Made by a program: the position numbers and the translations under genes
Notes under the pieces: generated by a model
What the model saw: only the letters and a program-made list of their open reading frames with translations
What the model was told of the DNA's origin: nothing
The model's database searches: none
Shown here: positions 1,771 through 64,000 of the stretch, piece by piece
How the letters are laid out: each line of letters begins with the position of its first letter
How positions within the stretch are numbered: position 1 is the stretch's first letter
Assembly: GCA_905178155.1 (NCBI GenBank)
Contig: CAJINV010000011.1
Location: 1,015,982-1,079,981 of the forward strand
Direction of reading: 5' to 3'
Length of the DNA: 64,000 nucleotides
From: Amoebophrya sp. A120
Lineage: Eukaryota; Protista; Dinoflagellata

Positions 1771-4700
1771 ATGGCGCGCGGCGGAGGTGGCAACAACAAC
1801 CGTGGTTCCGGCGGCTCGGACCAGACGCATGCGCCGCCGGATATGAAGAGCTTCCAGAATACCGCCATGGACCTGTTTCAACAACCCACTGGATTGGGCA
1901 GGACCGGGTCCCGCAAAGGCTCGAAGGAGAGCAAGCAGGCGGCGCGGAAGAAGCTGCAGGGCTTGCACGCAGCCCGGACGAACTACAAAAACCCGCAGAA
2001 GATCGCGCTGAGTATAGGTGGAGTGGTGTTGGCGGTTATGATCTTGGTCATTATCATGGACAAGCTGATGCCACCGAAGAACTTGGGGGGAAAAAACAAC
2101 CGAGGCAACTACAAGGACCGGGAGATGGGCGGTGGTTCTTCTGGAGGTGCGAATGGTAAATCCGGGACAACGGGACAAGGAACAGGAGGCGGAAGTGCGA
2201 ATAAGGACGGAGCCCAAGGCGGAACTTCTGGACAGCCAGGGGGTGATAAGAACGGGGCTCAGGGCGGAAAAGACGGATCAGGGACAACGGGAAGCGGGCC
2301 ATCTAAGGGCGATCAGACTTCCACTTCGAGTGGCTCTGGAGGCAGTTCTTTGGGAAGTAAGCAACAAGACAAGTCATCCGGCAGCTTCGATTCAGCCTCG
2401 AAGAAAAGCAGTGACTTCAGCGACGAAAATAAGGGACTGTCCTCCGCTGGGCAGGAAACACGCACCAGAACAGCGAAAGGGGACAATAATAGTCTTGACG
2501 ATGACCACAAGCTCTTTGACAGCGACGAGGACCTTGACGAACACGCGTCCAAAAACCGGACGAAAAAGGGCGAGAAGCTGCTCGCAGCAGACGACTCGGC
2601 GGTGACGTTACGGAAGTTGCGGATCCGGGCTGCGCGCGAGTTAGGTCCTTCTCGGAGGCAATTGTCAAAATTGAAAAATCTGTTGAAGGAGAAACTGACC
2701 ACGGAGAAACAGTGGGCGAACTTAGCAAAAGCGTGGATAAAGGGCGACTTTCTGGAGGACGATGCTGTTGTGGATCCGGTTTTTCGGATGCATTATGGGG
2801 ACAGCAATAGGAAATATGGTAGAATTGTGGAACAAGATCAACATCAAACTACTAGTGCAGATCAACACGAACCACGTCCTTACGTTTACAACGTGAGCAA
2901 AAACCACACGAGATTGATCCTGGCGATGGGTGGACAAATGTCGGAGCGGCGGTACTTGCACGATAAGTCGATGTTCACGCATAATTCCATCCAGCACTTT
3001 GGTGCGGTGATGGCGTTTTCCGAGTATTCGTGGCGGGAAAGGTTGCAGATTGACGAGGCGGAGGACGATGGCGCGAACCGAACCTTTTTGCAGTCCGCAG
3101 CAACATTGCAAACAAATTTTGATATTAGCACAAAAAAATCCAGTACTGCCACTTCTGTGGAATTCGACGCGGACGGAAACCGCCACGAAGTTGTACCGGA
3201 ACAAATCGAAGATACTGCGAGAACAGCATCAACATCAAAAAAAGAACAAGAAGAACAGCAAACGCAAACGAAAGTCTTCCAAGAAGTCGTGCGACTTTTC
3301 TCGACCGACCCAACAAAAACCGACGTGAAGCCGCTCGCGCTGGTCACAGTCCGGGGGAGGAAGCAAATCCGCCCTGACCCGCGGTTTTTCAGCGAAAATT
3401 TGCTGTACAACCGGGAAAAGCTGAAAAGCTGGCACACTGTCGAATTGGCGAGCCTGTTCACGAAGCGGATTCTCTCGCTCTTTGGGTGGAAATCGGAATT
3501 AGAGAAGGAAACTTTTTTCCACGAGGTCAACCGCCGAGCAGTGGATTTGATGGTGGAAAAAACCGGGGAAGCTGCCTGGAAAGCCGACGTACCCAGTGAC
3601 GAACAATTGGACATGCGGACGCTCAAGATGCGAATGAAGTATTTGTGTTAATATTACTTGCGATAGTACATAAAGGAATTCGAATTGCGGGCACTAGTCC
3701 TATTGACTATCAGATTTGATGTGATATAAAATTTTCAACGGTGAAGTTATTCAATATGATATCACTTCAGGTACACGAAGCAGATCTCTAGTCCCCGCGC
3801 CGATCTCCTCTTTGCTCTCCAAGCCGCTTCCTCCCGCGAACGGCGTTTTCTCCATTGGGCAACGAAAATCAACGGCACCTGGGATTTATGCACTGCAAAA
3901 GCATTGCACTTCTAGTTCTAGTACAAATTGCATGACAAATATATTTGAAGAAGACAAGCGCAATTTGTCATGCTGCATAAGGTAGAAACTTAGATTTGTC
4001 ATGCGTGGCTGCAGTTTATACGAGACGAGCGCGATACTTCTGCACAGCATAGGATTTTCTCCCAACTGACGATCCGAACGATGAGGTTTTATCAAGTGTA
4101 AAAATGTCTGGGTCTGGAAGGATGCGAACTCGTGATGCGTGTTGCGGATCATACAAAAATCTGTGTTGCATGACTTGCAAAAGGTCCCCATTTCTGGCCA
4201 TGCTGAGAGGGCATTTCTCATGCAGTATAGGCATCACCAAGGGGCTGCAGAACCTGTGATGCTAGGCCCTGCATTCCAGACTTGCTGGAACTTGGAAAAG
4301 CTGCATGACAAATCTCGGAATCTTCCAGACCCAGACACTTTTACATTGGATAGTTCCTGGACTACCGCAACGCACACGACCTCTTCCGGCAGCTGGTGCC
4401 AGACATCTGGCAACACGACACCCAAGTGCCGGAGAAAAGTCGGTCCACCGTGGGTTTGGGGTTGTCGGATAACCGTCCGATGCCCCAGAAGTGGCAATCC
4501 GCGGGGTTCACCAGCCCGTTCATGCAGCCGCACAACCTGCCCGGGATGTTTCCGTTCTTGACCCAGGGAACCTATGTGCAATCCTTCCCGACGAACGCGA
4601 AAGAAGCGTCGAAGTTGAAAGATGAGGGCATGCCCGCAGTACCGGCTGCTGCAAAGAGTTCTAATACAACTTCTGGAACAAATAAAGCAGACTCAGCACC

Positions 4701-7700
4701 TCCTGCTTCGAAGGATAAAGACAGCACAACAACGTCCACCGGTGGTAGCGCCTCCACTTCTGCCAAGGACGAGGCAGCCGGTTCAACAGATACCAGCTCG
4801 AAAACTATGGAGAACGACGTGCAACTTGGCAGTACCAACAGCACCACTGGCACGGCGACAGAGACCAGCACGATAGGAACTTCTGGCAGCGCCGATCATT
4901 CGAATGCTGTAGCGCCGGCTAGTTCTTCTTCTTCACAAGAGACGGCACCTACAGGAACTGATAGCGGAACATCAACAGATTCGGTTGCTACTACGACTAC
5001 CACCACGACGACCACGGCTCCTCCGAAAACCCGTGCGGAAAAGGTTCAAGAAGAGAAGGCCAAGCTGGCGAGCGTGAAGGAGAAGTTTAAAACCCACCCG
5101 GACCCGTACAGCGAGGCCCACGCGAGCGACTGGCGGTGGAGCTTCATGCGTTTTTTCTTGATGTATTACTACCCGACGCACTTGATGCACAAGTGGAACC
5201 TGCAGAAACAGGCGAACTTTTGCGGAAACTTGTTTTCGTTCTACACGATGATCTGGGACAGATCGATGGACGAAGCGGTCTTGAAGATCCTCTTCGACGA
5301 AGCAACGGCCAACGCGCCGCCGCCGACGGGCTTGCTTTGGTATTTGGAAGAAAAGGAACGGGACGGCTGTTTACCGGCGCAGGTCGAGCAAATGGCGATT
5401 TTGAAGAAGGAGAAAATCGAGGAAATGGAATCGAAAGATTTGCGGAAAAGAACGTTCAAAACGTTCAGAACTTTTGAAAAATTGCGTGAAAAGTTCAGAG
5501 AAAAAGAGAAAGAGAAGAAAAACAAACAGGAAGTAAAACTGAATTTGAAGTCCTGCGGGCTAAAATCCTACGCGGAACGGAAACTACACGGGGAGACGAA
5601 AAGCTGGCAGCCGGAACGGAAGCCGACGAGGGTGAGGAACTTGAGAAGGTGTAGAACCAAGAAAGGAACGAACGTGTTTCACGATTTTTCTCCATCCTCG
5701 AATAATGATCCTAGAAGTAACAAGCACGACAAGGACAACAAACACAGCTCCCAACATCATGTGTGGAAAAAGCATGTTTTATCTAGCCGAGACAATTGGG
5801 ACGCGGTGATTACGAACCTGTGGACGAAGTGCGAGCGGGTGTTGGGGAACCTGCACGAATCTTGGAGGAACCGCGTGAGTTCCGCTTTAGCGGATCACGT
5901 GGAACTGGTGCCTTTGATTCCCACTTCCGCGGCGTTGCATATGGATTGCAAATATGTCTGAGTCTGGAGAAGTGGAACTGGTGATGCGTGTCTTCCATGC
6001 GTGGAAAATCTGTGTTGCATGAACAGCAAAAGTAGAGCAGCTTCCTTTGTCATGCAGAAACGCAATTTGTAATGTGTGCTAGGCATCAAAAGGCGTCGCA
6101 AAAACTTGTCATGCTTGGCTGCCGTTGCAAGAGGAAGCGCTTCAATCATGCGCAATTCAGCATCATAGGTTTGCAGACCCAGAAATACTTATTTGCAATG
6201 CATATTGCAGCAGTCCGAGCAATTGATGTCCTTGCGATTGTGGCTCTCCACCCGGGCGCAAATACCCGAATTGCTATCCTGTGCAAAAGTATCGCACTCG
6301 TACTAGTTCTTCCAGCTATGCATGACAAATCTTCTTCTGAAGGTACAACGGCATGACAAATTCCATTTTTCATGCGGAGCAAATTTGTATATGCATAACT
6401 GCTCCTTAGTCTTAGTGCGATAATTTTGTAATGCATAACTGCCAATGGAGCATTACACGCCAGCCGCGGTGCTGGTTGCCGGCGGGTCCGCAAGCTGGGC
6501 GGAAGAGGGAACGAGCATTGACGATGAAGTAGAAGTTCTTGCAGCAGAAGATCTTCAGGCGGATGAAGATGCTCTGGGTCCTCGTGGTGGCACAAATCGA
6601 AATATTAACCGAAGTAGCACGAAGATGAACAAGAGAACTGCACCAAAGAAGACTAAGAATAAGAAAACTCCATCTTCAACATCCCAGATCCGCTTAGATT
6701 ACCGCAAGCAGCGGCTGTTTGAGGACCTCGTTCTCCGAACAGGTGGCGACTTCCGCTTGAATTTTTTTCACAGCATTCCGGTCCAGGAGGGGATTGAGGC
6801 CGACTCGCAGTTGTTCCGGAGAAGCTTTTTCCCCTACACCATGGACTGGTCGCAAATCGGCCCGCCCTACACGATCGCGCGGGACGGCACCATTGTGCCC
6901 GCCTCGGGCTTGAATTTAGTCCATGGGGAGCGCTACCGGCTGACGACAAGCGGGTCCCGGGTGTCGGACATTTCCTCCGTCTCGACCACTGTTGGGTTAA
7001 GAGGGTATGGGGACATCGAGGATTTGCGGCAAAACGTGGTGCAAAGAGATAAAATCTTCGTCTTCGACGAGTACGCCGACCATTGGCGGAGAATCTTGGC
7101 CTCGATCGAGCAAATGTCGCCGGTCTCGAGGGATCGCTTGTATTTGAAGGAGGACGGGTTGGGGAAGCCGCTCAGTGAGAAGGAAAAAAAGCAAAAAGAG
7201 AAGGAGGACAAGGAAGACTTGGCTATGCGGAAGAAATCGCCGGGGTACCAACTGGCGCAAATGTCCAAAGAGGAACGGGCGGACTTCGGGGTGAAAATGC
7301 GCGCTCTGTCCGAGGACAAGAAGGCGATGGAACTGATAGAAAATTTCCAATTTGCCAGGCAGCAGTCCGCCGAGGAATTGCAGAAGACGGTGATACAGCT
7401 CGCGGAATCCATCGATTCCCACAACGAGAAATTGATTGGCGAGGACTTCGTGAACTTTTTAGACCAGAAGATCGAGCTGAAAGACGGGAAGCTGTTGCAC
7501 GTCACGCAAGAAGAGAAAGACTTCATCGTCAAGGAGTTCCTCGCGGAGATGATGCTGCTCAAGCGGGAACGGAACATGCTCCGAAACTCGATAGATCGGC
7601 CTGGAATGTGGACGGAAGACGGGCAGAAATTCATGGATGAGCTGAAGGGCAAATTTGCGGATCGGGACCGCTCCGACGACCGGGCTCTGGAAAAGTTCAT

Positions 7701-10700
7701 GGAGGTGTGTCCGCACAAGGATTTCCGGCCCTTTTTCGCGTTTCCGAAAGAGTCGAAAATGTTACAAGCGGAGTTTCAGAAATACGACGACAACGTGCGC
7801 AGGAAAACCTCGTGGGGAACATCAGATTTATATCCCACGAAAATAACCCATCCCCATCGTAATTGCTATTTTTTTTGCAAAAAACGCTAAAAAAAATTGA
7901 AAAAAAAACAAAAAAATTGCTACCCATGCGGAAGGGCTTCGTGGTGTTAGCTAGCACGTGACGACTATGACAGAAGCAGCCTGAGACGATTCATCTAGAA
8001 GTGTTTGCTTTGAATTAGCTAGCTCAAGGCATCCCCGGCGAAGCCGCGACAACAAAGCCACCGAAAGATGGGCGTCAGACAGGGAGACAGCGCCGGCTAC
8101 GGATACGCTTTAGGGCCGTCAGGGCCGTTGGTTTGCTTGCTTTTTCCCACATCACCGTCGCCATGTCTGCTTGCCACCACATCGCGACCATAGATGAAAG
8201 CCCGTGACCTGTTTTGTCCGTCGTTTTGGCCTCAATAGGTCGGCGAAAATTACCCATCCGGACAAATTTTTGCGACTTTTGAGCTTTTCGGATTTTTTCC
8301 GCAAATATCTGTTCAAAAAACCGGAAAAAATCAGATTTTTCTTTTTTTTGGCAAATTTCTTCAAAATTCCGAAAATGCAGAAAAATCTATCACGATGGGT
8401 TATTTTCGCCGACCTGTATAGGCAAAAAAGCCTACTTTTTTCGAAAAGTGGTCCGATTTTGATTTATCTGGATGGGTTATTTTCACCCGACCTGAGTCGG
8501 GCAAAAAGTTGCTCTTTTTTTGCTTCAAAGCCGGCTTTTTTGGGAAAAAAAAACTTGGGTTTTCGGGGTATACGGGTCGGCGAAAATAACCCATCCAGAT
8601 GATTTGCAAAGTTTCGCTATTTTACAAAACCCCAAAAAAGGCGAGCAAAAAGCGCGCGCCTGCCCCGACCTGAGTCCGTTGATTTGGCGATTTTTTTTCT
8701 TTCAAAAAAGTAAACACTCTGAGCGACATTTTAGCCGGACTCAGGTCGGGGCAGGCGCGAGCTTTTTGCTCGCCTTTTTTGGGTTTTTGAAAAGTCACGA
8801 AATTTTGCAAATCATCTGGATGGGTTATTTTCGACGACAACGTGCGCAGGAAAACCTCGTGGGGAACATCAGATTTACCGAGTCCGTGGCCGGAGCATGC
8901 GTTGGACGAAAAGTATGCGTCCAGAATGCAGAAGCGCGGGATGCTGAAAGGAGGGGAGGACGGGAATGTTCGAGTTTTCTATCGGGTTATCAAATTTTTG
9001 ATGCAGCGGTACGATCTCAAGCATATGACATACGATTACGGGTATGATCAGGACATTGCGGAGGGGAAAGCAGCATCATCATCATCATCATCCGAAGCAG
9101 GGCAACTGATACTGAACAACACGACTGCAGGAGATGCTGCTACTACCGCCGCGGACAGCAGCGCGCCGGAGCATTCCAAAGGTAAAAGCTTGTGGGGTTG
9201 GGCAGCAGCTTCTGCACCAGGAACAGACCCAGAAGGAGCACATGCCGCAACCGGTGCTCTTGCGGACCACGAAGTCGAGGATAGCGACACCAGTACCACG
9301 AATAAACTGGCGGAACCGAGGCTAAGGGACCAAGTTGCCTTCGACAGGGAAAAGTGGAAAAACGGCCCCAAAGCCCCCTCTGGCGCTGCCCCCGTGCGAG
9401 AAAGTGGGTTAGATCCCTCGGAAAGGGTGCTGGCCTTGGCGATGGACAATCTTTACGTGTCCGACCGCGGTAAGATGGAGCACATCACCCGGGAAATTGT
9501 CCACTTCGCCACGGCTCCGGAGTACGAAAAGTGGCCACAGGCGGCGTTCGTCCGGGATGAGTACCGGCGGAAAAGGCAGAACGTTTTCAAATTCAAGCCG
9601 ACCCCGGATTTTCCGATTTTCAGCACGGAAACGCAGAAAGACCTCCTGGCCCGCTTTGCGGACAAGCGGCAAGAAAGGCTGCACAAGAAGCACCTTCAGC
9701 CCGTTCCTGACGGGGGGAGCACTCCGATGAACTTCAACCTAGACGGGCCAATTGTAACTTCAGACGGGTCCTCCTCCGCGGGGCTATCGACGTCCTCCCC
9801 CATGTACGCGAGCTTATTACTGTCCGCGATTATTGAAGAGCGGGAAAAAATTGTGGAAAAAATGCCGTACATTGAGCGAGCAAGGTTGAACTACGAGAAC
9901 AGTAGAATTAGCCATAACTACCAGAAAGTGAATTCCCAAACGAAGAACAGTCAGGACGACCTGGAATTCGCGCAGGACGGGCAACTACAGTGGCTGTACG
10001 CGATGAAAACCGACAAATCCTGGCAGGCGCAGGTTTCTCTTGCAATCGCGAAGTCCGGAATCGGAAACAAAAACAGGTTTGACCACACGGTGTCCACGAA
10101 ATTCCACCAGTCGAAGTTTTTCGAGAAGTATTTGCGCACGACTCTGTCGAAGTCCCGGCATCGCAAGTGGCGCAAGGATTCTTTGCTGAAAATCTGGCTG
10201 TTTCGGAAAATCCAAAAGGACCGGGACGAGCAGGAATTCGATAGGGTGGAGGGAGATGTTGATCTTCAAGCTTCTTCTACGACAGCAATAGAGGAACAAC
10301 CTGCTGCAAATGCAATTGCAGCAGCTGCGCCATCAACAATAGTACATGAACCAGAGGCAGGGAATTCTACTGACGCAGCAGGAGCTCCTGTCGCGAACAC
10401 GACCACTGAGGACGCTACTAGCGCCGAGATGGACTACGAGAAGAACGAAACAGCTGACACCTTGCCTGCAGCCCCCTCGTCAAATGTCGATGCAACAAAT
10501 GATGAGACAAATGTAGTACCGCAAGAAGAACACTCACCTGCGAGCGCACATCAGAGTAGAAGGATTCCCCGCAAGAAGAACAAGCGCCCCCCCTCCGTTT
10601 CCCGCTTTGCTGATAGAAGACAAAAGTACGAAAAGTACAAAGAGCAGCTGGAAAAAAAGCTGACCAAACTCGGCGCGGTTCGGCAGAAACGCAACCACCG

Positions 10701-13700
10701 ATGGGTGATCCGGCGCATGCGCGAGCTGCAGATGGTGCTTTTTGGCGGTGGTGAGTTCCTCGGGTTTCACAAAAGAGCATCCACGGCAGTTCTCCCCAGA
10801 TTGTGCATCAGCTTGCACGCGTTGGACGGGAGGTTTTTGTTGGACAGTGAGAAGAAGGGAAGCTTCAAAGCGCGATTCCACTTCGAGGGGCTGCTGCAGC
10901 CCGGTCGTGGGGTTTATAACAAATGTGTTGGGATTTTCAGGAAGCAGTACGCGGCTGCGGCGCGGGTAAAGAAGGAACAAGATGAAATCGTCGGGGGTCA
11001 ACAGCAGGACGAGGGTCTTCGCGGTCCTCAAACACAGCATCAAATTCATAGCCCCCCAACCCTTGCAGAGTACAACCAAAACGTAAACAAGTGGGCTGCG
11101 AGCGCGCAGTCCTGGAGCGCTGGCATCGGTGCCCAATCCTCGTCCACCAAGCAGACGTCGCAAAAAAGCCTGTACTTCAACACCCGCACGAAACAGAGCG
11201 ACTTTTTCGTGCCGAAACACCGGGTGACGAAGGATAGGTCCGCGGCTTTTATCTCTACCCAGTTGATGAAAACCTACGCGAATTACTGGGCCTACGCGGA
11301 AGTCGGTCGAAAAATGTTTGCACCGAAGATGCTGCAGCACCACAAGGAAACCGATGAGGTCGATTTGTATATACTCGGCCTCTATGAACTGCAAAAGCAT
11401 CGCACTCGTAGCAATTGCAGTCATGCATTATACAAATCTCCATCCCAGCCCACGGTACAACAGCATGACAAATGGAATTTGTCATGCTGAAGTAAAACTT
11501 GTAATGCAATTGCTACTAGTACGATGCTTTTGCAATGCATAGCCTGCGGTTAGTCCCGTACTCGTCTGTAAAGACCTACCCCGTGGGGATGGGCCGGATG
11601 TACACAATCGACGACGACCGCGACAAGGATGTGAACCTCCCGGCCAAGTCCGCGCGGGAGACAATCAGGAATAAGCAGAAACTGTCCAGAGGGGAGCCGG
11701 GCACGGGGGAGTGGAATCGGAGAATAGACCGGGACCCAGTCGGGCTTTTCGCAACGAGAGAACTCCGGGCGGCGGCGTACCCGAAGTACAACGAAGAATC
11801 CGTCGGGTTGTTCAAGCATTTGAACAACGTGACGGTTACGGCCAAGCAAGCGAGCGTCGTCGTCGCGGGGTCGCAGGCGGTGGAGCAAGAGTCGTTATTC
11901 ACCCAAGCGGATGTGTCAAACACGCAAAGGGTAGCGATCCCGGTGCTGGGTAATAAAGATGTGGTGGACATTCAATACCCGGAATTGACGAAGCAAAGAC
12001 TAAGCCCGGGGTTGTTCAAGAAACCAGTGGAGATGAAAACCATCAACCAGGAGAAGGTTTTGAGCAACGCGAAATTCGAAATCGTGGAAAATTTGAACGC
12101 ACAGCTCCACTACAACGACCACTTGTACAGCTTTTTCACGGAGGAACTGAAGCAAGCAAGCGTTGGGACGAGGTGGGAGAAAAAGACCCCGAGAGTTAGT
12201 CCGAAGGTCGTCGCGTTTTTGCAGCAGCTCGCGGTGAAAGTCGCCTACGGGGGGTCGTGGTTCTACCACCCGATGAAAGTCGCGAGTTTGTACGATATGT
12301 TCATGGATTTAACCTACGGTATTTGCCACGGGTTGCGGCACCAGAGTGTGGAACTGTATCCCGATATGGCGAATCTGTTGTCCGCGAAAAAGACGTACAA
12401 AAGATTTGTGCAGATGGCAAGTCACTACGGGTTCCGACAGAAGCAGCACGAACTGTATTCGCGGCGAGTTACTAGGGCAAGGTGGGAAGAACTACAACGA
12501 CAAAACAGGGTGAAAAACGAAACTGCGTATGCGATGAAATTCTTGGAGCAAAAAGTCGTGGCGGAACAACAAGAAGCAAGGAGAAAGGCCGAATTGACGA
12601 TGCACTCGGAGTCGGTTCCGGTAGTTGTAGAAGCGACGATAAATGATAAAACTGCACCAGTCTTCACTTCTGTGCCGACGGAGCAGGTCGGGGGTAACAG
12701 CACCACTTCTACTAGTACGATGGTACAAGAGCCGGCGGACAAATTCGCAGAAGAGAGCGGAAACAACACAAGCACTGGACGAGCTGCCTATCCCGAAGCG
12801 AATCAAACTGCAGCTGAAGATGTTTCTCGTACTACTGATGCCGACGGTGAGATCATCGTGGATAGAAAAAATGCTTCTAACAATGACACCACAACAAGTG
12901 ACAAAATCTTGTGGTGGAGTCCACCGGCTGCATCTCCGTCGAATAAAGAAGCCCGTCAAGTTGAAGATGCTCCTACCTCCCCCCCGCCCGCGCTGTTTTC
13001 CGAGGTGCATAGAACAAGTGCTGCCAAAGACCTGCGCAGCAAAAATCGGGATGTTGACAACGATCCAAATAATTCCGATCTCCCGCACAACCGAAATCGG
13101 GAAGAACCGACCCTCCTGACTAGCCGGGACGCCGAGACGGCGGTGATCAGCAAAAAATACTACACCTTCGGCCTCCACCCTGCGGACAAGAAGTTGGTGT
13201 TACTTTCCTTGGAAGTGTCCGACGACGAGGCAAAAATTCCCTACTGGGAGGTGCGCGACGACGTCGCTTTGTTCGCCCGGATGAAGGGAAAATACGCGTA
13301 CAATTGGGACTATGACAGTGCGCAACTCCCCCTCTCCCTCATTTGCATGGCATGAGCAGCAACACAAGTCAAGGCATAACTGCAGCTTTTGCATGACAAA
13401 TTCGCGACCGATTATAGTGCTGTTTCGGCTTCCGGAATCTGTCATGCAAGTTGTAGTGACAAAGGGGAAAAAGTGGATTTGGTATTCTGCATGACAAATG
13501 AGGGGAAGGGGGAGCTGTGCACTGTCATAGGGACGAAAAATATGACACGGACGACGCGATTTTTCTGCGCAATCCGCATCTGGACTTGGAAAAATTGGCA
13601 GCGACTACCACGTTCACCACGAAAGAACAGGATTTTTTGCAAGCTGCCGGGGAAAACAAGAAAAGCGCAGCAGCTTCTGCTGGTACTACCGTACAGGGCT

Positions 13701-16700
13701 CTGCTAGAAGTACTGGATCACCGACCAAAAGCGCTAAGAACAATGCCAGTACCTCCGATATCAAACAGGATGACAAAGTGAACACAGTGCCGTCCTACTC
13801 GTCTCCAACGGCTGCTGCATCAACAGGGACAACAACTTCCTCCACGAACGGCACAGAAGCCGTTCATCTTACCGAGCCACTCAGCACGACCGCGATCACA
13901 TCTTCTACTGCTTCAAGTGAATTAGCTGTAGCTACGGACAATGTTGTCTACAAAGTAGAACATCTAGAAGTTATTCCGCAAGACCTTCCCCCCGAGCTCC
14001 CGGAACCGTTGCTCCCCGCGAGCGTTCTCTCGCAGGCGAGCAGTAGCACCTCTACGTCGACGTCCACGACATCGCACAGGTTCGACTCCGTCGAGGATGA
14101 GGAACTGGATAAGTTGATAGCGGATGAGAAAATCCTCCACTTACCCCCCACGGAAGACGATGTGGAGAAAAAACATGAGGAAAACCTGCAACAAGCCGAA
14201 CAGTATATCATGGACGTGATGAATAAAGAACAGGATAGTGCAGCGACTAATGGAATTCCAACTTCCGAAACGACATCCTCCACTCTGATGACAGTGGCTG
14301 GCGAAGAGGCGCTTCTGGGTGATGGTGATCAAGATCAAGTTCATGATCATCCTGAAATGATCAGTACAACTTCTAATTCCTTCATTTCCTCTCCACCACC
14401 ACACTTGGAACTAGATCAGCAACTGGTCGAGCCGGAGACGGACTCGGACTTCAACGCACCCCCGGTCGACTATGGCGTTCTGAAACGTTACATTCGCAAC
14501 TGCTACATGATTTGTCATGCAAAATGACCATGAGCCGCCAGACGATCAAGCTGCTTCGCATGACAGATTATCCAAGGGCCAAACAGCATCTAAATCTGTG
14601 CGAAATTTGTGATGCAAGATTTGCAAGCTTGCCGCTTTCCCTATTGCTCAACTGTTAAACAGTTGAGCATGTAACATTTGAGAACTCCATATTGACATCA
14701 CGCGAGACGAGGTCCGGCAGTTGCACGGGAACGAACAGATCATGAAGCTGAAATCGAGAGGAAATGATATGGAGCCGGAGCTGAAAAATCTGGAGCTCGA
14801 CGAATTGGAGGCGTTGTCGGCCATTCTTCGCGACGAAATGGAGCGCAGGGAGAAACTGAAAAAAGGAGAGCCTGTCGCGCCAAAAGAAAGTAAGGGCAAA
14901 ACAACGAATTCTGCGCGGTCAGGAAGACAAGATTCTATCGCAGCGAGGACGAGGCAAGAAGCAGCTGCGCGAACCGATTCTGCGAATTCCGCGAAACTGC
15001 ACGAGACCGAGTTGAAAATTCGGGCGAAAAAAATGAGGAGGACCTACGAACAACAGCTGGAATTGGAGCGGAGAGTGGTGCTGGACCAGCTGAAACGGGC
15101 GAGAAGCGAGGCAAAAAAACAGGCCGGGGAGGAGAAATCGAAATGGCAAGACGAGTACCTGAAGAAGAGAAAAGAGCTGCTTGCGCGAGGGGACATTCCT
15201 ATTCTGGGGATTGAGGAAGATGACGCACTGAATCAGGTCATTTTGAACAGTACAGAGGAAGACGTTGAAGCCCTTGTTGCCAAAGCCCTGCTGGGAAAGA
15301 CGGCAACATCTACATCTTCAAGCGTCGGACAGAAAAACGCGAGTGCTGCTGCACCTGCTGGTGCTACAGCTGGTAGCTCTTTGACCACTACTCCAGGCTC
15401 TGCTTCTGTTTCCGTTTCCTCGTCAAGTAATATGTTCGGAGCTGATGTCCCCGAAGTAGTTGCGCCGCAGGGAAACAGTGGTCCTCCACCTGCCGCAATT
15501 AGTACCCAGCAACCTTCCACGTCACTCCCGACGCTCGGCAACGTTGTTCCAGTGGCCCATTCCATCGATGTACCTCCTGCACCGTCCTCTGTGGAGGGGC
15601 TCTCGCATTTGGAATTGGAAAAGTTCTACGACGCGATCGAGGTGAACAAGCTGCTCACCGTGGTCCGCAAGCACTCGCAGAAGCAGTCGGATTATCTGAT
15701 GGAGACCATGTATCAGCTCGGCTCTAATCGCGTTTTGATTAACGATCGAGAACGCTTTACCTTCGCGCGGATGCACAATTTGGTGCAGGAATTCGAAAGA
15801 CGGGTATTGTACAACGCGACGGAGTACCCCCCGGAGCAAATGCTAGGCGCGGAGGAAGATCAAGATGGAAGTAAAACAGCGACGAATTATGCTGGTCGAG
15901 GGAGCACTGTTTCCGGTTCTACTTCTTCTACTGCCGCACCACCAGGAGGACAGCAACCTAGCTCTATGGCCTCCATCGACGCGGACGTGCGGTATCAGCA
16001 CCTCCAAGCCATCGACGCCCGACAAACGCGGGGTTTGGGGGCGAAAGAAGCCGCGTTGATTGGGGGCGAGATGGGATCGTTTCTGAAGGATTTAGAAACG
16101 AAATCCATGGAGGACTACGATTTAGTCAACGATACGGAAGAATTGGTGATGCTGCCGGATCCGAATCCGAGGGACGAAAACCGGATGCAGAAAAAGTGGG
16201 AGAAGGAACTGCTCGGAGGAAAAGTCTTTCGAACAAAGCATCCGAAAAAAAGTAGTTTCAAGGAACTCTGTGCGGATTTTTTGCCGATAGAACAAAAGAA
16301 AGAAAGAGAAACTGAAACTCAAACAACTTCTACTGAGCTAGAAGGAATGAATAAAAAAGGAGCAGGAGCAGGACATCAGGACGAGGACAATTTGTTCGTC
16401 TACCGCGAAGAAGGTGCAGAAGTAGATCGAAACGCAAGTACAACCTCCACTACGTGGACCAAAACAAAGCCGCCGCTGTCCGACGTGGGGATCGCGCTTC
16501 TGACGCTAGACGCGGTCGCGCAGGAAGTCCTGCCCAGTATCGAGAAGGCGAAGCCCGCGCCCGCGAACCAGACGAAACCGCCGAAGGAAAAATATTACGA
16601 CAAAAATCATTTTCACTTCAACCACACGACGCAACAGCTGCACATGAAGAGGGTAGGTATAAAACCGAATCGAAAACCTTATACGAACAACACGAAAGCG

Positions 16701-43900: not shown

Positions 43901-45574
43901 AGACAAGTAGCGAAGACGAGGAGGAGGACGAGGATGGGCCGGCGCGGTTGAGCATCCCGGGGCTGATATCGAAGGGAAAATTGGTCGTGCACAATCCTCT
44001 AAAGGAAGAAAAGCCTGATGCTGGTCGTGAACCGCCTGATAAAGACAATAAGAGTGCAACTACAGCTGCAACAGTAGGAGCTGCATCAGAACCACCTCCA
44101 CCAGCAGATGACAGCACAGCCGGCGGGGGTGGCGAAAATGGTACAGATGATGCAAAAGCGGAACAAGGCGTGGTCACGCAACAAGACAACCCCACTCCCG
44201 ACTTGAACGACAGTAGCATGTTGATCAACGTTCCAGATCATGACACCTCTTTCGCATCATCCGGGAAAAAAAATCAAGCCACGTCACAGAAACAAGCACC
44301 AGGCGGCACAAATCCACGCGAGGAAATCGGCGGTAGCTCTGGATCTTCAAAAAACTCAAAGGAAGAGCAGGCGGACAACCCAGCAGATCCGAATCCTGCG
44401 TCACCAATGGCAGCAGGAGCCAATGACGCCCCACCACCTCAGAAAAACGGCGAAGAAACTTCTACCCAAGTAGAAATGAAGCCAGAATCACCGCCTCCCG
44501 ACGACCCCGTCCCGGAGCGCGTTGTCCCGCGCAGAAGGCAGCAGAGCAGTACCGCCCGTCCGAGGATTGGCACAGTGGAGTCCGTAGCATCACGAGCGTC
44601 GAGGCGGTCCACGCGGTCCGGGAGGCGAAGCAGGCGGGAGAGCAGTGGTCGGCGGTCGTCTAATCGCGACGAAAACGGCGGGAATTCCGCAGTAGAGAAG
44701 AACAGCTCCCTGGTTTCGGCGTTGAGCGTCGCGGCGTTAAATCTGGGGAAAGCGGCAATACGAAGAGGAAGCTCCATGGTATCGATTTTGGCTGTGAGAA
44801 GATGATGCTCTACCATGTTGCAACATTTTCATCCACCTCGCAGAATTTTGATTTTTTAGTAGAGGTGTCGCACAGTAGAAGCACTCCTGCAAACCGCAAT
44901 CGCACTACACAGGTTTCCCTCGGACCCAACGACGAGGAACTGCTGGGTCAAAACATCGTGGTGGACAAGGGCGTAATGCGCCGGACCCGGTCTACCGACG
45001 GCTTTGCGGCGGGCTCGCTCACCGGCAGCTTGGGGCTTGCCTCCGGCGGAACCAGTCCGCCGCCACGGGGCGGCGCGCTGGCCGCCATGGCCTCTGGTGG
45101 TAGATACTAACTTTTTGCCGAAAAAATTATCGGGAAGATGATCTTGATGGAAGACATGCAAGTGCCGATGTAGTATTTCTTCTAGTGAAGAACAAGCTCC
45201 TTGTTCGAAAACAAAAAATCGCACCCACCCCTGGAGGTTCCTCCATTACAACAGGTCCGATCCCACGCGGCAGACGTTCGGGTGGAGAGCAGCTACAATC
45301 AAGACCTTCTGGCGGCGCAGCAACGGCCAGTTCCACCAAATCTTCTGCCAGACCACTTGAACAAGCCGTCGACGGAAATATTAATCTCGTCCCTGTTGCT
45401 CGCACTCTTTCCGCCGGCGCCGCCAGGGTGTCTCCGGCCAGTGGCGCTGCCGGCATTTTCAGTTCCCTGTTTGGTCGGAGTTCTTCGAGGAAGACCGACG
45501 CAGCGAGGGGGGCCCCAGAGATCACGACAAGCGCTGCGATGGGGGGAGGTGGAGGTGGAATCGTGCCAACAACA
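40936..45574 (+). CDS. Kv-like channel with EF hands, copy truncated at the assembly gap
   Basis: Same sequence as 50706-55344; runs into a family A introner (45579-45716) cut by the N gap. Confidence 0.6.
41051..41364. mobile_element. Introner, family H (314 bp)
   Basis: TATGGAACTGTCAGGATCGAAATCGTCAAAGTTGAAAT TIR; TSD CCAGC/ACAGC; restores ESGQPSQP; repeated at 50821-51134. Confidence 0.9.
42192..42451. mobile_element. Introner, family A (260 bp)
   Basis: TATCAAATGCAAAAATGTCTGGGTCTGGA TIR; TSD TGGGT/CGGGT; restores HGGSVLDN; repeated at 51962-52221. Confidence 0.93.
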
Positions 45575-45716
45575 AGCATATCGAATGTAAAAATGTCTGG
45601 GTCTGGAACATTCTGACGCTTGTCATGCACGTTTTGCATGAGCCCTGATGTCTGTGATGCATGCCCTAGCATCACAGATTTTTTCAGAGCTTCTTGATGC
45701 CTATTCCGCATGACAA

Positions 45717-45816
45717 NNNNNNNNNNNNNNNNNNNNNNNNNNNNNNNNNNNNNNNNNNNNNNNNNNNNNNNNNNNNNNNNNNNNNNNNNNNNNNNNNNNN
45801 NNNNNNNNNNNNNNNN
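45717..45816. other. Scaffold gap (100 N)
   Basis: Run of 100 n. Confidence 1.
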
Positions 45817-51800: not shown

Positions 51801-54800
51801 TCTGCTTTTTGGATATCAAGTAAAAAAGCAGTTGCACAAATAGTCGCAGGACACACTAATCGCACTCGCACATCACCAGATAGCAGAAAACATATCAACA
51901 CCGGCAGTTCCCCGCGCCAACTCGCAGACCCAGCTGGACAAGATTCTTCACCACGGTGGGTTATCAAATGCAAAAATGTCTGGGTCTGGAGGAGTGGAAA
52001 CTTGTCATGCATATTTCCATGTCCCAGGAGGTTTGGCATGCAGGAGCTAGCATGACAGATTCTGCGAAGTCTCTATCAAGCCTATCCTGCATGACAAACT
52101 GCCACGAAACTTGTTCAAACGTGGACACCTTTTGGTAATCATGCAACACAAATTTTTGCACTATCCAGACTTAGCATGACAAGTTCCAACCTTCCAGACC
52201 CAGACATTTTTGCATTTGATACGGGTCGGTTCTGGACAACATTCACGAGGTGGTGAACGAAGTGAAGCTCATGGACAGCCAGAATCCGCATTCTCTAAGA
52301 GCCTTTGTCGCGAAGAAGAAGCTGCTGCTCTGGCTGTTCATGGAAGAACCGTTTCTCACCCCGGTTTCCACGGCTTACTCCCTCGGGATGATTGTGCTGG
52401 TCGTGTTTGGGTTTTACACTGCAGTGAAGCCACAGGTACTCATTTTTACGAGCATTCAGAACAACTGCTGCGATTTCTTGCAATGCTGTGAATGCTGCGA
52501 ATGTTGTGTTTGTGATGCATAAAAATAAAATTAAAAGCAATTATGACGACAAAAACTAGACCTACGAAGCCTTCACCGGTGAGTTCCACGATACCGCCTG
52601 GGTGGAGGAGAAGCTTTTTTGGTGGACGTTCGCAATTAACCTCATCTGCACGCTGGAGACCGCACTACGCTTCTCGGTCGCACCGGTGAAGATGAAGTTC
52701 ATAAACCAAGTTTCGAACCTGTTCGACATTCTGGCGGTGCTCCCCTTCTGGATCAACAATTGTTTCCGGCTAGACAAACACGTCTCCCCCGGCCTCCGTT
52801 ACATCTCCGTTTTCGGTGCGGTTTTCTGGTTGGTCAAGCTCTGCAGATATTTCCCAGGTTGGTACCTACTCCGCATGGCATTGCGGAACAGCATGGCGGC
52901 TTTGTTAATCCCGGTGTTTTTCCTGTTGATGATGGGTGTTGCGGGGGCGTCGCTCGTGTTGACGTTTGACTGGATTTCTGCCGTGAACGGCGGGATCCCC
53001 TTGCAGATCTCTTCCTGGATGAAGGCTTTTCACTACATCATGGTGGTCACCATCTCCATCGACGTATCACCAGTTTACGGGACCGCGGCGCAATCCGCCT
53101 TGGCGCAAGCGATCGCGGTGTTGTGGATGTATTTGGGTGTGATTTTCCTCTCCATGCCCATCGCAATCGTGGGAACGTGCTTCTCCCAGACCTGGTTCGA
53201 CCAGGACAGAATCGTGTTAGTGGAGAAGGTCCGATCGAGAATGCGGCAGCAGGGGTACACGACGGACGACTTGCGGGAGGTTTTTGACGAGGTGGATGAG
53301 GACGGGTCAGGCGAGATCGATTTCTACGAGTTCAAGCGCATGCTCGAAGCGTTCCACTTCTTCGCGCCGATCGGGAAAACGAGGAAACTCTTCAACCACT
53401 TCGATACTAATGGGACAGGCTCAATAAGTTATCAGGAGTTCGTCTGCGTCATTTTTCCCGAGATCACCGACATTGTCGACTGGGACACGCAACGGGTGGA
53501 TCGAGACGCTTTGGAGGTGATAGAGGAGGTGGAATCCGATTTGGAAGAAGACTCCTCCGCCCTGTACAGCAGTACCGGCAGTAGTGGTGCGGATGATGAG
53601 AGCTCGGAGTCGTTTCTGCAAAAACGATCTAGATCGCAGTCGTTGGACAAAAAGTCGGTGAACTTTTCGAAGACAAGTAGCGAAGACGAGGAGGAGGACG
53701 AGGATGGGCCGGCGCGGTTGAGCATCCCGGGGCTGATATCGAAGGGAAAATTGGTCGTGCACAATCCTCTAAAGGAAGAAAAGCCTGATGCTGGTCGTGA
53801 ACCGCCTGATAAAGACAATAAGAGTGCAACTACAGCTGCAACAGTAGGAGCTGCATCAGAACCACCTCCACCAGCAGATGACAGCACAGCCGGCGGGGGT
53901 GGCGAAAATGGTACAGATGATGCAAAAGCGGAACAAGGCGTGGTCACGCAACAAGACAACCCCACTCCCGACTTGAACGACAGTAGCATGTTGATCAACG
54001 TTCCAGATCATGACACCTCTTTCGCATCATCCGGGAAAAAAAATCAAGCCACGTCACAGAAACAAGCACCAGGCGGCACAAATCCACGCGAGGAAATCGG
54101 CGGTAGCTCTGGATCTTCAAAAAACTCAAAGGAAGAGCAGGCGGACAACCCAGCAGATCCGAATCCTGCGTCACCAATGGCAGCAGGAGCCAATGACGCC
54201 CCACCACCTCAGAAAAACGGCGAAGAAACTTCTACCCAAGTAGAAATGAAGCCAGAATCACCGCCTCCCGACGACCCCGTCCCGGAGCGCGTTGTCCCGC
54301 GCAGAAGGCAGCAGAGCAGTACCGCCCGTCCGAGGATTGGCACAGTGGAGTCCGTAGCATCACGAGCGTCGAGGCGGTCCACGCGGTCCGGGAGGCGAAG
54401 CAGGCGGGAGAGCAGTGGTCGGCGGTCGTCTAATCGCGACGAAAACGGCGGGAATTCCGCAGTAGAGAAGAACAGCTCCCTGGTTTCGGCGTTGAGCGTC
54501 GCGGCGTTAAATCTGGGGAAAGCGGCAATACGAAGAGGAAGCTCCATGGTATCGATTTTGGCTGTGAGAAGATGATGCTCTACCATGTTGCAACATTTTC
54601 ATCCACCTCGCAGAATTTTGATTTTTTAGTAGAGGTGTCGCACAGTAGAAGCACTCCTGCAAACCGCAATCGCACTACACAGGTTTCCCTCGGACCCAAC
54701 GACGAGGAACTGCTGGGTCAAAACATCGTGGTGGACAAGGGCGTAATGCGCCGGACCCGGTCTACCGACGGCTTTGCGGCGGGCTCGCTCACCGGCAGCT

Positions 54801-55486
54801 TGGGGCTTGCCTCCGGCGGAACCAGTCCGCCGCCACGGGGCGGCGCGCTGGCCGCCATGGCCTCTGGTGGTAGATACTAACTTTTTGCCGAAAAAATTAT
54901 CGGGAAGATGATCTTGATGGAAGACATGCAAGTGCCGATGTAGTATTTCTTCTAGTGAAGAACAAGCTCCTTGTTCGAAAACAAAAAATCGCACCCACCC
55001 CTGGAGGTTCCTCCATTACAACAGGTCCGATCCCACGCGGCAGACGTTCGGGTGGAGAGCAGCTACAATCAAGACCTTCTGGCGGCGCAGCAACGGCCAG
55101 TTCCACCAAATCTTCTGCCAGACCACTTGAACAAGCCGTCGACGGAAATATTAATCTCGTCCCTGTTGCTCGCACTCTTTCCGCCGGCGCCGCCAGGGTG
55201 TCTCCGGCCAGTGGCGCTGCCGGCATTTTCAGTTCCCTGTTTGGTCGGAGTTCTTCGAGGAAGACCGACGCAGCGAGGGGGGCCCCAGAGATCACGACAA
55301 GCGCTGCGATGGGGGGAGGTGGAGGTGGAATCGTGCCAACAACAAGCATATCGAATGTAAAAATGTCTGGGTCTGGAACATTCTGACGCTTGTCATGCAC
55401 GTTTTGCATGAGCCCTGATGTCTGTGATGCATGCCCTAGCATCACAGATTTTTTCAGACCTTCTTGATGCCTATTCCGCATGACAA
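45817..55486 (+). repeat. 9.67-kb near-identical duplication, copy 2
   Basis: Matches 36047-45716 at offset 9,770. Confidence 0.95.
47741..49848 (+). CDS. Choline/ethanolamine kinase (duplicate copy, probably the same locus)
   Basis: Same as 37971-40078. Confidence 0.75.
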
Positions 55487-57509
55487 ATGCCCTCTCCGCG
55501 CAGCAAAAATTACATTCCTTTTGGTACTCATGCAATACAGATTTTTCTGGAATCCAAATGTAGCATCACAAGTTGCATTCTTCCAGACCCATACACTTTT
55601 ACATTTGATAAAGCAAACTCGGCGTTCTTACCGGGAAAACCGCGTCGCCGGTAAGAGGGGCGTGGGTGATCTTGATCGGACTATACTTTTTTACTTTCAG
55701 CTCCTTCTTCTTCATCGTCTATGCCGCTGCAGCTCTTTTTGTGGCTCAGCTTGCACGCACGAAAGATGATGAGCTTTTTAACAAAAACAGGTCGAGGCCG
55801 CGCTCCGCCAGAGTTTTGGCGCCACACACCTTCTTCGCCAGTCGCATACAGCGACAGATAGCCGCAGAAGCCTGTTGCATAACCCGAACTCCGCCGTGGC
55901 GGCAGTCTCAGACGCCGATAGTGCGCTCCTGCGCACGAGCGTGACAGCCACTGGCGGAGGTCTTACTACAACCGGCGCAACTGCAGCACCAGGCGGTGGC
56001 CCCGTGAAGAAAACGCGGTCAAGGGGGATGAAGACAAAGGATCAGAACAAGCGTGGAGGTCGAGGAGGCCAGAACGGAACGGGATCATCTGGGGGAATAA
56101 TCAGCGGCAGTTTTGATCCTTTGAACAACAGCACGGGAACATCAACAGCTGCAAGCAGCGTGCCTAATTCGCTACCCCACAGCGTAGGTACACTATCGAG
56201 CCTGCAGCACCGGGAGCAGGCTGGAAACGGTACTCTCTTCGGCACTCACGTGGGCTCACGAGGGGGTCCGCCGGGTCCGGGTGGGTTTTGGCTCGCCGGC
56301 GGATTCGGAGGTGCAGTGGGCGGGAACAGCGGTGGAAATAATTCAAATATCGGAGGAAGTGGCGGGAGCAACAGTGGCAGTGCTGGGAACAGCAATGTTG
56401 ACCTTCCGACCGTTTTACAACGAGTCACCGCACGAGTGACCACACTGGAGCAGCAGCTGAACCAAATCGCTGATTTCCAAAAGCAGTGTCTGGCGGTGTT
56501 AAGCTCGACCAACTTGTCCTCCACCAGCTCGCCGTCTAATGCCGGAGGCAATGGTGGTACCGCGACAGCACCAAACGGTGCAGGAGCTGCTGCTGGTTCC
56601 ACAGCGTCCTCTTCCCAGACTTCCTCAGTCTCGAAAATGGCATCGTTGACCCTGGAAGCGCCACAGTCTTCGAATCAGCGCCGCGGCAGCAGCTCCAGTC
56701 GGCGCGGCAGTACGGCGAGTAGAAGGGGAAGTGCGGTCAGCAGGAGAGGGAGCACTGCGAGTAGGAGGGGGAGTGTGGAAAAGGAGATGAATCAGCAGCA
56801 TGGCGTCATACCAACTGCAAATGCAAATTCGACAGTCACCATACCGGGTTCTACTTCCCTGCCGTTGAAGAACCACAGACGCGGAAGTTTGGAGAAGATT
56901 GCCGGCGTTTTGAATTTGGACCGACTCGTCGCGTCCACCAGTTTGATGGGCACTTCTTCCCAAAACCACCGACGCGCATCCAGGACCAGTATCATCACCT
57001 CCTCGGAGTTCTACCGCGGGCTCGGAGCGTCCCAAACGCTGCCGGGCAGTGGGGGTGCGGGGACCGGAAGTGTGAATTTAAGGCGGTCGAGCAATTTGGG
57101 CGGCGCGCGGAGCAGCCTGATTGTTCCGGGAGGTCGAGGCTCGGTGTCTTTGGGTGGACCAGGGAGTAGTGGCGCAGCTGGTGGTCCTTCAGGGGCAGCG
57201 TTGGTAGAGATCGTGTCGCACGAAAGTGGCGGGGGTCAAAACAGTAGTACGTCCTCCTTTGGACTGGATATGAACAACGCAGCTGCTGCTGTAAAAAAGA
57301 AGCTGCAGATCAATACAGATCTGAATGTCGAGCGGGAATTCGTGCAAACACCTTCGGAAGATCTTCAAAACAGCAGCACGGGGGGAGGCGGTGGTACAAC
57401 TAGTAGTGGAGCAGGAGGGCCAACGACGAATCAAGATGCCGGTCCTCCTGGTCGTTCGCAACAACAAGAAACCACCAGCCAGGAACCGGAAGTGTATCCG
57501 GAGCAGTAG
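50706..57509 (+). CDS. 6-TM Kv-superfamily-like ion channel with two EF hands and long disordered tail, ~1,751 aa
   Basis: Exons 50706-50816, 51136-51694, 51908-51957, 52223-52435, 52560-54548, 54683-54869, 54956-55344, 55612-55650, 55791-57509 (5,256 nt, open). S2/S3 ETALRF...NLFDILAVLPFWI, S6 GVIFLSMPIAIVGTCF, EF hands DEDGSGEIDFYEF and DTNGTGSISYQEF. Confidence 0.8.
55349..55610. mobile_element. Introner, family A (262 bp)
   Basis: Family A TIRs; TSD AAGCA/AAGCA; restores TTSKLGVL. Confidence 0.93.
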
Positions 57510-62000: not shown

Positions 62001-64000
62001 ATGGTCGCCACTTGGTCTGCGTATTTCGATCGGGTGGCGCCCAAGGCCGCCGGTCTTGCGGCCGGGTACCCCACCGTGCTTGCCGCCGTCCTGGGTTTCG
62101 CCGTTGCGGGCTTGATTTTGCGGCAGAAGGCGTCGATCTTCCGGAAAATCGAGAAGGTCATTCTGTTTCCAGTGAATTTCACCGTGCGGGTGGTCGTTGA
62201 GCTGATTCTCTTCGTCAATAGCTGCTTTGAAAATTGCACGCTGCGCACCACCGTCGCGGTTGGGAACAAGCACTGGAAAAAAGTCACGGTCGCGGATCCC
62301 CACTACCCAGTACAGATCGAGTTCCGGCATTGTTCCACACCAGTACTTCTACCATGTACGGAGGAGAAGGATGTCGAAAAGGACAAGAAGTCGCCCTCCG
62401 CCATCGGGGGTGTCACACGAGAAGAAGCGCAGGGGCCACCTGCAACAGAGGGCTCTTGTTCCTCCGCTGCGCTCTCCATCGAGCACCTGTGGTCTTCCAG
62501 CGTGGCCCCCTGTACGCAGAAACTGCAACAGCAATCCACCCTCCTCTACGTCGAGCGTGAGCCAGCCTTCACCGGCAGCCGCCAGGGCACCCAGTCGTTG
62601 CACGTGCTGCAGAAAATCGTGCAAGGGTCGAGCTTATGCATTGCAAATATGTCTGGGTCTGGAAGGATGCAACCTGTGATGCTGTCTTTGGATTCTGAAA
62701 AAATCTGTATTGCGTGACCAACAAGAGGGGTCCATTTTGTGCTACGCGGAGAGGGAATTTCTCATGCGGAATATGCATCAGGAAGCCCTCCAAAAATCTG
62801 TGATGCTAGGTCACGCATTACGGGCATCATGCGACATAGAAGATATGCATGACAAACCTGGCTTTCTTCCAGACCCAGACATATTTGCATTTCATAGAGC
62901 TTGTGGGACCTGGCCTGTGATGTGCTGTACCGAACCATCGCGGGCGGGACTGGGTATCCTGTGCAAAAGTATCGTACTCGTATTGCGAGCATGCATTACA
63001 AATCTTTGTTGAAAGGTAAATCCGCATTACAAACTTTACTTCTCATGCTGAGGAAATTTGTAATGCATTTATACGAGTGCGATACTTTTGCAGTTCATAC
63101 TGGGTACCAAGCGACAAAAGCGGCCGCGTTTTTCAAGTTCTTGAAAAACTACCGCACGATGGCGCCGCAGCTGGACTACTTGTTCGACCACAGCACGGAT
63201 CTGTACGGAATCGGTTTGACGCACAAGGCGCCGGCGCTGTGCTACCGGTCGGATTTTTTGACGAGAACGGAGAAGAAGGTCGAGGAGGGGGCGCTGGAAT
63301 TAGTGGCGGGGAAGAGTATAATTTGTTCTACATGTGGACTTTTTTAGTACGTGTTTTCTTTCACTAGCGATGATTCTGAATTGGAATAACAGTAGTTTGT
63401 TCCCTTTACTAGCTTTTTTTCATCATCGTAGCGCGGTCGCTCCTGTCAGCGTCGCATGAAGACACAAGAAGATTACGAACTCACATCCTGCTTCAAAACT
63501 AACCCCTCAGGACGCGGGCTCCCCGACTATGGCGAGGAGGTTGAGGCGGTGGAAACCCCGTTAGAGTTCTACCAGCTTTTGAAGCCGCACTTGAAGCAGG
63601 TGATTGCGCCGACGGACGTGCAATCGCTTTTCCGCATCATCCGCCTACATGCGGTTGACGTGAGCAACAGTTCGATGAACAAAAAGGTGAAAAACCGAAT
63701 CCTGGGTTTGTTTGACATCATGGCGTTTCTGCCCCACAGCGACAAGGATCCCAACTGCTTCCTCTCCGTCCACAACGGGCAACTCGAGCTGTACAGCTAC
63801 GACAAAAACGTCCCCGACTGGAGAAAAATAACAGTAAATCGCTTGAGTTTGGAGAACAGCATGCTGTGTGTGAAAAAACGGAACTTTGTGAAATCCGAGA
63901 TGGGGGACTTGGAAACAGTGTCCCTGTGCGGTGGAAAGGGTGCGGGGGAAGCCGGAAGTCAAGCTGATAACAACAGCAGGAAGCAACAAGCGCTGGAGCA
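62001..64000 (+). CDS. Divergent SET-domain (SMYD-like) protein with hydrophobic N-terminus, runs off window
   Basis: Exons 62001-62630, 62898-62950, 63101-63315, 63511-64000 in frame. GLFDIMAFLPHSDKDPNC...ITVN resembles the SET motif GLYxxxSLFNHSCxPNC...ITISY. Confidence 0.55.
62635..62896. mobile_element. Introner, family A (262 bp)
   Basis: TATGCATTGCAAATATGTCTGGGTCTGGAAG TIR; TSD GAGCT/GAGCT. Confidence 0.93.
62955..63099. mobile_element. Introner, family B (145 bp)
   Basis: TATCCTGTGCAAAAGTATCG...CGATACTTTTGCAGTTCATA; TSD CTGGG/CTGGG. Confidence 0.92.

Follow-up and report, generated by a model that had tools for sequence, protein, structure and literature searches.

A short internal box with recurrent spacing common to introner families of Amoebophrya sp. 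A120, a putative DNA site for a shared mobilizing protein

The window analyzed here is a 64,000-nucleotide (nt) stretch of eukaryotic DNA from the dinoflagellate Amoebophrya sp. A120 (GCA_905178155.1, contig CAJINV010000011.1, forward-strand positions 1,015,982 to 1,079,981), in which long plus-strand reading frames are interrupted by a few GT-AG introns and by many short inserts bearing terminal inverted repeats (TIRs), the introners. Using a scan for TA...TA inverted ends, together with reading by eye, we collected 23 distinct elements (6,333 base pairs (bp) in total), which measure 145-326 bp apart from one of 1.2 kb. Nearly all start with TAT and finish with ATA. Most lie between direct repeats of 5 bp, in keeping with the 3-5 nt border repeat that marks A120-type introners. 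We describe a box that recurs inside families of these elements with different TIRs, often at a fixed spacing, and argue that it is a putative site on double-stranded DNA for a mobilizing protein.

The elements are listed below, together with one box-less element and one stretch left out of the counts. A strand is given where one was assigned; PWM denotes boxes scored by a position weight matrix, and joints are those of RNA-like contigs, which come from one sample and are presumed to be RNA from joins across GT-AG introns, none of the listed samples being recorded as RNA.

3887..4051: family B element, 165 bp; boxes +44, -87 and -118, with a same-direction pair at 31 bp; duplication GGATT
4090..4352, minus strand: family A element, reverse; 6 boxes; duplication imperfect
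5940..6204: family A element, subfamily A1; 7 PWM boxes, 6 on one strand
6275..6437: family B element; box pair +46/+77
7831..8832: box-less 1-kb element with TAT-N7-AAA start and its own internal repeats; the exception
11383..11541: family B element; 4 boxes
13311..13529: family C element; box pair +49/+81, outward box 41 from the right end
14471..14691: family D element with TATGG at its ends; outward box at 50
19354..19679: singleton F element; left TIR degenerate; 3 boxes; an RNA-like contig skips 19353-19683 (element plus 5)
21938..22199, plus strand: family A element; boxes -50, -82, +91, +130, +184 and +215; ATCCA duplication
22280..22559: family E1 element; 6 PWM boxes, all but one on the same strand
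22591..22854, minus strand: family A element, reverse; removed from the same RNA-like contig as the forward copy
23509..23664: family B element; box pair +46/+77
24702..24963, plus strand: family A element; 6 boxes
34753..35073: family E2 element; three box pairs with 32-33 bp spacing; joint omits 326 = 321+5 (1 of 4 runs)
35136..36336: 1.2-kb element; boxes near the ends only, 58 from the left, 52 and 20 from the right, the latter two 32 apart
36374..36522: family B element; 4 boxes
36567..36775: family G element; box pair -40/-71; joint skips 214 = 209+5 (1 of 4 runs)
38303..38507: family G element; all 4 of 4 runs have a joint that omits 210 = 205+5 (one sample)
41051..41364: family H element with TATGG at its ends; boxes -50, +145, +177, -218 and +259
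42192..42451, plus strand: family A element; 6 boxes
45579..55348: stretch left uncounted; it holds a truncated family A copy, a gap of 100 N and a second copy of 36047-45578 with its elements
55349..55610, plus strand: family A element; 6 boxes
62635..62896, minus strand: family A element, reverse
62955..63099: family B element; mostly GCATTACAAA variants; pair +39/+70; no strict GCAT[GC]ACA

The omitted stretch belongs to a tandem duplicate (36047-55486) whose copies are offset by 9770 and align over 9670 bp with 1 mismatch and 100 N between them; this 9.7-kb duplicate is a probable scaffolding or assembly artefact.

The commonest real 8-mer of the window, GCATGACA, occurs 63 times, with 18 copies in the omitted duplicate. 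The remaining 45 all lie in the 23 elements and none in the 47,897 bp outside them (binomial p about 1e-42), which bears out the observation of the first-pass annotation that the families share an internal box scarce elsewhere. The slightly wider GCAT[GC]ACA is found 58 times inside elements and twice outside, as against 1.3 +/- 1.1 (maximum 7) in 500 dinucleotide shuffles of the elements. Both outside copies read GCATCACA and lie at 32976 and 42748 in GT-AG introns (a set of 10 approximate intervals, 2,021 bp), consistent with the claimed rarity in exons and canonical introns; the two introns concerned, 32902-33512 and 42666-42790, are possibly decayed introners that turned canonical. At the level of the PWM there are 110 matches in elements and 14 outside. 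Eleven of the 13 box positions first given start exactly with GCATGACAAA or TTTGTCATGC, the other two (13439 and 13488) being off by one. The further statement that each family has boxes in both orientations fails for strict 8-mers, which occur in both in just 15 of the 23 elements and in neither in one, and stands for the PWM, by which 23 of 23 elements hold at least three boxes and 22 of 23 hold both orientations.

The full box is GCA[T/A][G/C/T]ACA[A/G][A/G]T, or, in its ten-base form, GCA[T/A]NACA[A/G][A/G]. Its position 5 is free (G/C/T), and positions 1-3 and 8 are almost fixed, a pattern that resembles a site whose bases are read by a protein; a likeness to RBFOX or ApiAP2 sites was dropped because of this free position. 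The box is distinct from the TIR start TAT-N7-AAA, the ends having negative median PWM scores in every family, with 14% of family A ends and 19% of family B ends alone passing the matrix. As a separate observation, CpG is depleted in the elements (observed/expected 0.57) and TpG enriched (1.52), for which the boxes themselves are partly responsible.

An independent set of elements came from metagenome contigs searched with the family A end, which gave at least 161 loci; the 80 listed are all from one public assembly. The scan of these loci did not use the box motif and required TAT and at least four of five matches in the 5-bp repeat. It returned 242 distinct further elements, 205 with perfect and 37 with four-of-five duplications, at loci whose overlaps with the window are no longer than element-sized matches. 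Family A (149 elements) is over-represented by design, the other families being neighbors of A copies. In this set the called elements (57.8 kb) contain 418 copies of GCATGACA and the 186.8 kb outside them 177; 139 of the latter have a locus end or a TIR-like site close by, and of the remaining 38 many resemble uncalled elements. The TAT-N7-AAA end is likewise present, with A at positions 11-13 at a family-weighted 0.72-0.88 and weaker in C, D, H and I.

Multiple alignments (at least 4 rows, window copies included) revealed that conservation of box cores exceeds that of the other interior positions in all 13 (0.83-0.97 vs 0.69-0.86). The boxes were defined on the consensus, a bias in their favor; in a window-level control 50 of 64 consensus boxes nevertheless rank above the 95th percentile of non-box windows. 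In families of 64-85% mean identity the spacers deviate from consensus at 16-32% and box positions 1-3 and 8 at 1-5%; position 5 is no better conserved than spacer. Box cores are conserved like or above the TIRs.

The boxes are also regularly spaced. Same-direction pairs 31-33 bp apart were first noticed in the window and then tested on the other assembly, where 11 of 14 families have them (null mean 1.27; 0 of 200,000 simulations), and this spacing is fixed across families. Opposite-direction boxes recur at 40-42 bp. Six families have a first outward box 40-42 bp from an end, and five have one at 48-52 bp. The end distance of 20 first outward boxes is phased (Rayleigh p=0.008), equally strongly at periods of 8-12.

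We compared the families after masking the boxes and cutting 34 nt off both ends, taking the best of two orientations against 100 shuffles. Pairs from different families mostly have z below 3, as against values up to 18 among subfamilies of A and 9 among those of B, and the families do not align over their whole length. They are not one recent lineage, and the alignments point to a likely old common origin or module exchange; to call them unrelated, as was first done, is too strong given the common TAT ends, the 5-bp duplications and a weak box-masked likeness in a few pairs.

Removal of the elements from transcripts is evident both from reading frames and from the RNA-like contigs. When every element is excised together with 5 nt, 15 kb with 8 elements reads through with 0 stops, and only this offset opens long frames (+0, 3, 4, 6 and 7 fail). 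Contig joints skip exactly the element plus 5 for G2 (4 of 4 runs), E2, G1 and F1; the length of one contig accounts jointly for the removal of A3, E1 and the reversed A4r, and forward and reverse family A copies are both excised from one contig. Fixed GT-AG ends are absent from the elements, which are removed from mRNA with non-canonical ends, directly at the four joints and by length arithmetic for the other three. No matches to Rfam were obtained. In one sequencing run (X5) the contig depth summed over the elements greatly exceeds that of the flanks, which is not a copy number, and another (X8) contributed just 23 reads, on element ends.

Two longer elements carry their own signatures. The 1-kb element (7831-8832) has a perfect 45-bp exon duplication as a direct repeat on both sides, spanning 7786-8877; the last 8 nt of its right TIR are missing, and excising 1,047 nt preserves the frame, from which we infer that it is spliced out, with no joint across it listed among the RNA-like contigs. 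The 1.2-kb element lies between copies of a 73-nt exon duplication (34737-36564), each of which was later struck by different introners; contig joints 34736>36338 and 35131>36775 agree with an mRNA in which the 73-nt stretch occurs once. In 7 of the element's open reading frames (ORFs) Pfam gives no match above the cut-off. A match to DUF6076 below threshold at 35848-36201 on the minus strand is a weak pointer only; the DUF6076 label is also listed, in what is accessible of Gozashti et al. 2025 (PMC12130899), for the 1,180-bp family 135, along with hAT5/hAT6 terminus hits.

Among other features of the window, a very long plus-strand coding region (1750-26053) is interrupted by 14 inserts and few GT-AG introns. 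A dual-specificity phosphatase gene (PF00782) lies in 27594-31400, with its 3' part and downstream DNA duplicated at 30.2-31.4 kb, and at 59517-61082 an 81-nt coding repeat has ten dispersed copies within one ORF.

To which nucleic acid the box belongs is indicated by its orientation relative to the host gene, whose strand was called by a codon model. In the 136 elements so called there are 305 sense and 328 antisense boxes; sense boxes are in the majority in 22 of 54 asymmetric elements (p=0.22), and 8 of the 136, including 3 reversed E1 copies, have no sense-strand box at all. This strand indifference, the conservation and the fixed spacing together argue that the site is recognized as double-stranded DNA. 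Where non-coding elements have TIRs and a duplication of fixed length, cut-and-paste by a transposase acting in trans is implied, and the subterminal repeats of the elements Muta1 and Lemi1/Emigrant, which are transposase sites, lead us to favor a mobilizing protein here too. We accordingly consider it reasonably probable that the box is a double-stranded DNA site for one mobilizing protein common to all box-bearing families; this putative protein is probably a transposase or its helper. Of the first-pass alternatives, the common protein-binding site is in this way upheld at the DNA level, as a prediction from core conservation, spacing and the lack of strand bias, and the nested RNA stems are not supported. 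The protein would engage box pairs three helical turns apart (31-33 bp) and also the outward box nearest an end, at 40-42 or 48-52 bp, and when bound might assemble a complex that joins the ends, with cutting at the invariant TAT/ATA and a 5-nt stagger. Recognition via boxes would leave the remaining TIR free to diverge among families as long as both ends match, and multiplication would be confined to copies whose boxes are intact, which would explain the conservation of the box. Splicing would rely on the TIR hairpin and the end letters rather than on the boxes.

Several observations weigh against a common mobilizing protein. The host strand is callable for only 136 of the 242 elements. Families C, D and I fail the 31-33 bp rule in the test set, and of the families that pass, three comprise one element each and two comprise two. 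Some family pairs exceed the box-masked background (C-I z 8.1, A1-I 5.3, C-E1 4.3, B6-G 4.3, H-E2 4.1), and given such weak links the families, and with them the units of the spacing test, are not fully independent. Helical phasing of the end distance is suggestive only, since it shows no preference for 10.4 bp and is absent from inward boxes (p=0.40). Tests of selection after insertion disagree: singleton changes are about as frequent in cores as in spacers in three large A alignments and fewer in cores for B and E1 (a biased measure), and private changes relative to the nearest neighbor amount to 2.4% in cores vs 6.5% elsewhere (a sparse sample). No transposase or autonomous element was recognized among the four long elements with foreign inserts and the 7 of 226 TIR matches that have no near partner. 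Further, Farhat et al. 2021 found no transposase gene in A120 and, in the text accessible to us, excluded general transposase-mediated mobilization (PMC7789003).

The four long elements (L033:632-1465, L061:571-1051, L063:1815-2445 and L035:1814-2270) have intact ends, 5-bp duplications and 200-650 bp of foreign sequence. In 13 ORFs of L033 and the 1.2-kb element Pfam gives nothing above the cut-off. The family A TIR has 0 matches in viral contigs; the box-pair pattern has 32 there, of which one AT-rich locus gave loose element candidates and none lies convincingly inside a TAT...ATA element, and we read them as chance or local repeats. The best lead to the mobilizing protein is family 38 of Gozashti et al., described there with "5-bp TSD, TA/TA termini" and integrase-like homology, and close in length to L033 (PMC12130899, as far as its accessible parts go).

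Of the competing explanations, we regard as unlikely that a host DNA-binding protein marks these introns during transcription, for unusual splicing or silencing, and that the host selects the box after insertion. It would fit every DNA-level signature equally, namely conservation, spacing and strand indifference, and agrees with the lower private change in cores than in spacers, with the lack of fixed GT-AG ends and with the report that U1 small nuclear RNA was not detected in A120 (PMC7789003, accessible text). It is harder to reconcile with the box-less 1-kb element, which sits in the same long frame and, judging from that frame, must be removed if the gene is intact; moreover, the 2.4% private change in cores is near the 3.1% mismatch rate of the target duplications themselves. 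Box loss in family A copies with imperfect duplications is uninformative either way. It is the disagreement between the tests of post-insertion selection that keeps a host factor in consideration.

We deem it improbable that the boxes and their spacing are functionless leftovers of one old ancestral element, retained by descent, module swapping or gene conversion. The common TAT ends, 5-bp duplications and weak box-masked likeness agree with such an origin, as do the near-identical box layouts of H and E2 and of C and E1, and a three-box module shared by B and G. Descent explains layout but not selective conservation, and as a no-function reading it is largely refuted by the contrast between 1-5% and 16-32% change; common descent as such is compatible with the mobilizing-protein reading.

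That the box is a single-stranded RNA site (GCAUGACA) of a dedicated splicing factor, a factor that the first-pass annotation also proposed, is very doubtful. Most elements have boxes on either strand and would offer the site in either orientation, but the strand indifference, with reversed E1 copies among the elements devoid of a sense box, disfavors it, and a 31-33 nt period is unexpected for single-stranded RNA.

Folding of the RNA is likewise an unlikely role for the boxes, although predicted in-register pairing between them is high in families D, H and B (0.77, 0.75 and 0.56), they contribute about 7 kcal/mol of folding energy beyond control shuffles (44 elements), and one B6 pair co-occurs at 0.85 vs 0.55 expected (n=13). 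Pairing falls to 0.19 in A1 and G, 0.10 in A4 and 0.06 in E1, nearly all of whose boxes are on one strand; opposite boxes have no consistent covariation, and the outer A1 pair is mismatched at position 5 in 89% of 45 copies. Predicted TIR pairing is 0.57-0.91 throughout the larger families. Shuffling the boxes leaves it unchanged (0.722 to 0.720; p=0.43 vs control shuffles; 44 elements). The proposal that opposite boxes pair to fold the intron into nested stems bringing the splice sites together is the least credible of all.

A bolder extension of the mobilizing-protein reading, which we rate as rather a long shot, is that one unclassified transposon system with TAT...ATA ends and a 5-bp duplication, defined by the box array and not by the TIR, supplied tens of thousands of introns, and that the box protein both mobilizes them and licenses their U1-independent removal. 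If true, a transposon protein would double as a host splicing guide. Both the spread and the splicing of the non-canonical introns of Amoebophrya are open problems; the box and its spacing suggest one recognizer and offer a bait for it. The box signature is usable to find the autonomous element, and a genome-wide comparison of box integrity with intron retention would separate mobility from splicing.

The elements agree with the A120 introners of Farhat et al. in their TAT-N7-AAA ends, 3-5 nt border repeats, non-canonical splice ends, similar length and lack of coding capacity (PMC7789003). Unlike what we find, that account, in its accessible text, has terminal repeats only and 1,954 families, for which no family-specific inverted-repeat motif or transposase accounts, and does not mention a shared internal box or spacing rule. 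The A120 families of Gozashti et al. have lengths of 149, 160, 209, 222, 234, 252-261, 278, 305 and 321 bp, with further ones of about 810 and about 1190 bp, all of which match families here, lengths and not sequences being compared (PMC12130899). Those authors, in the parts accessible, assign A120 introners to diverse origins (TIR, long terminal repeat (LTR), non-LTR and unknown), whereas the shared box argues that many of them form one system. We found no published report of the box or of a cross-family spacing rule in the accessible literature, where figures S19-S25 of PMC7789003 may show part of the motif.

Among transposons at large, IS3EU and GingerRoot share the TA...TA ends, and the rust-fungal TAYGG...CCRTA ends are like those of families D, H and I (PMC10045372, PMC12730594 and PMC6839031, each in part). 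Their target-site duplications (TSDs) are usually given as 6 bp, whereas here 5-bp repeats directly flank TAT...ATA. Transposases of the hAT5 type are hAT transposases with a BED finger and a dimerization domain. The hAT5 TSD is 5 bp, as here (as cited in the accessible part of PMC12730594).

The elements have the properties of miniature inverted-repeat transposable elements, being short, non-coding, of high copy number and furnished with TIR and TSD, with internal repeats conserved above background. The closest parallels are the subterminal repeats of Muta1, which bind the transposase and raise excision (PMC5499845), and those of Lemi1/Emigrant, which also bind it (PMC1636448). As far as the accessible parts of these two papers go, the likeness extends to several short subterminal repeats in either orientation on non-autonomous elements, with an arrangement that affects binding, and hAT and CACTA are cited there among the systems that have subterminal transposase-binding repeats. 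The repeats of Muta1 and Lemi1/Emigrant are tandem or TIR copies within one family with a known transposase; here, in contrast, the box is not a TIR copy, recurs in 14 or more families with different TIRs at a 31-33 bp spacing, and lies in elements that are spliced as introns. Introners and subterminal repeats are thus both already known, and what appears new is a box and spacing rule common to families.

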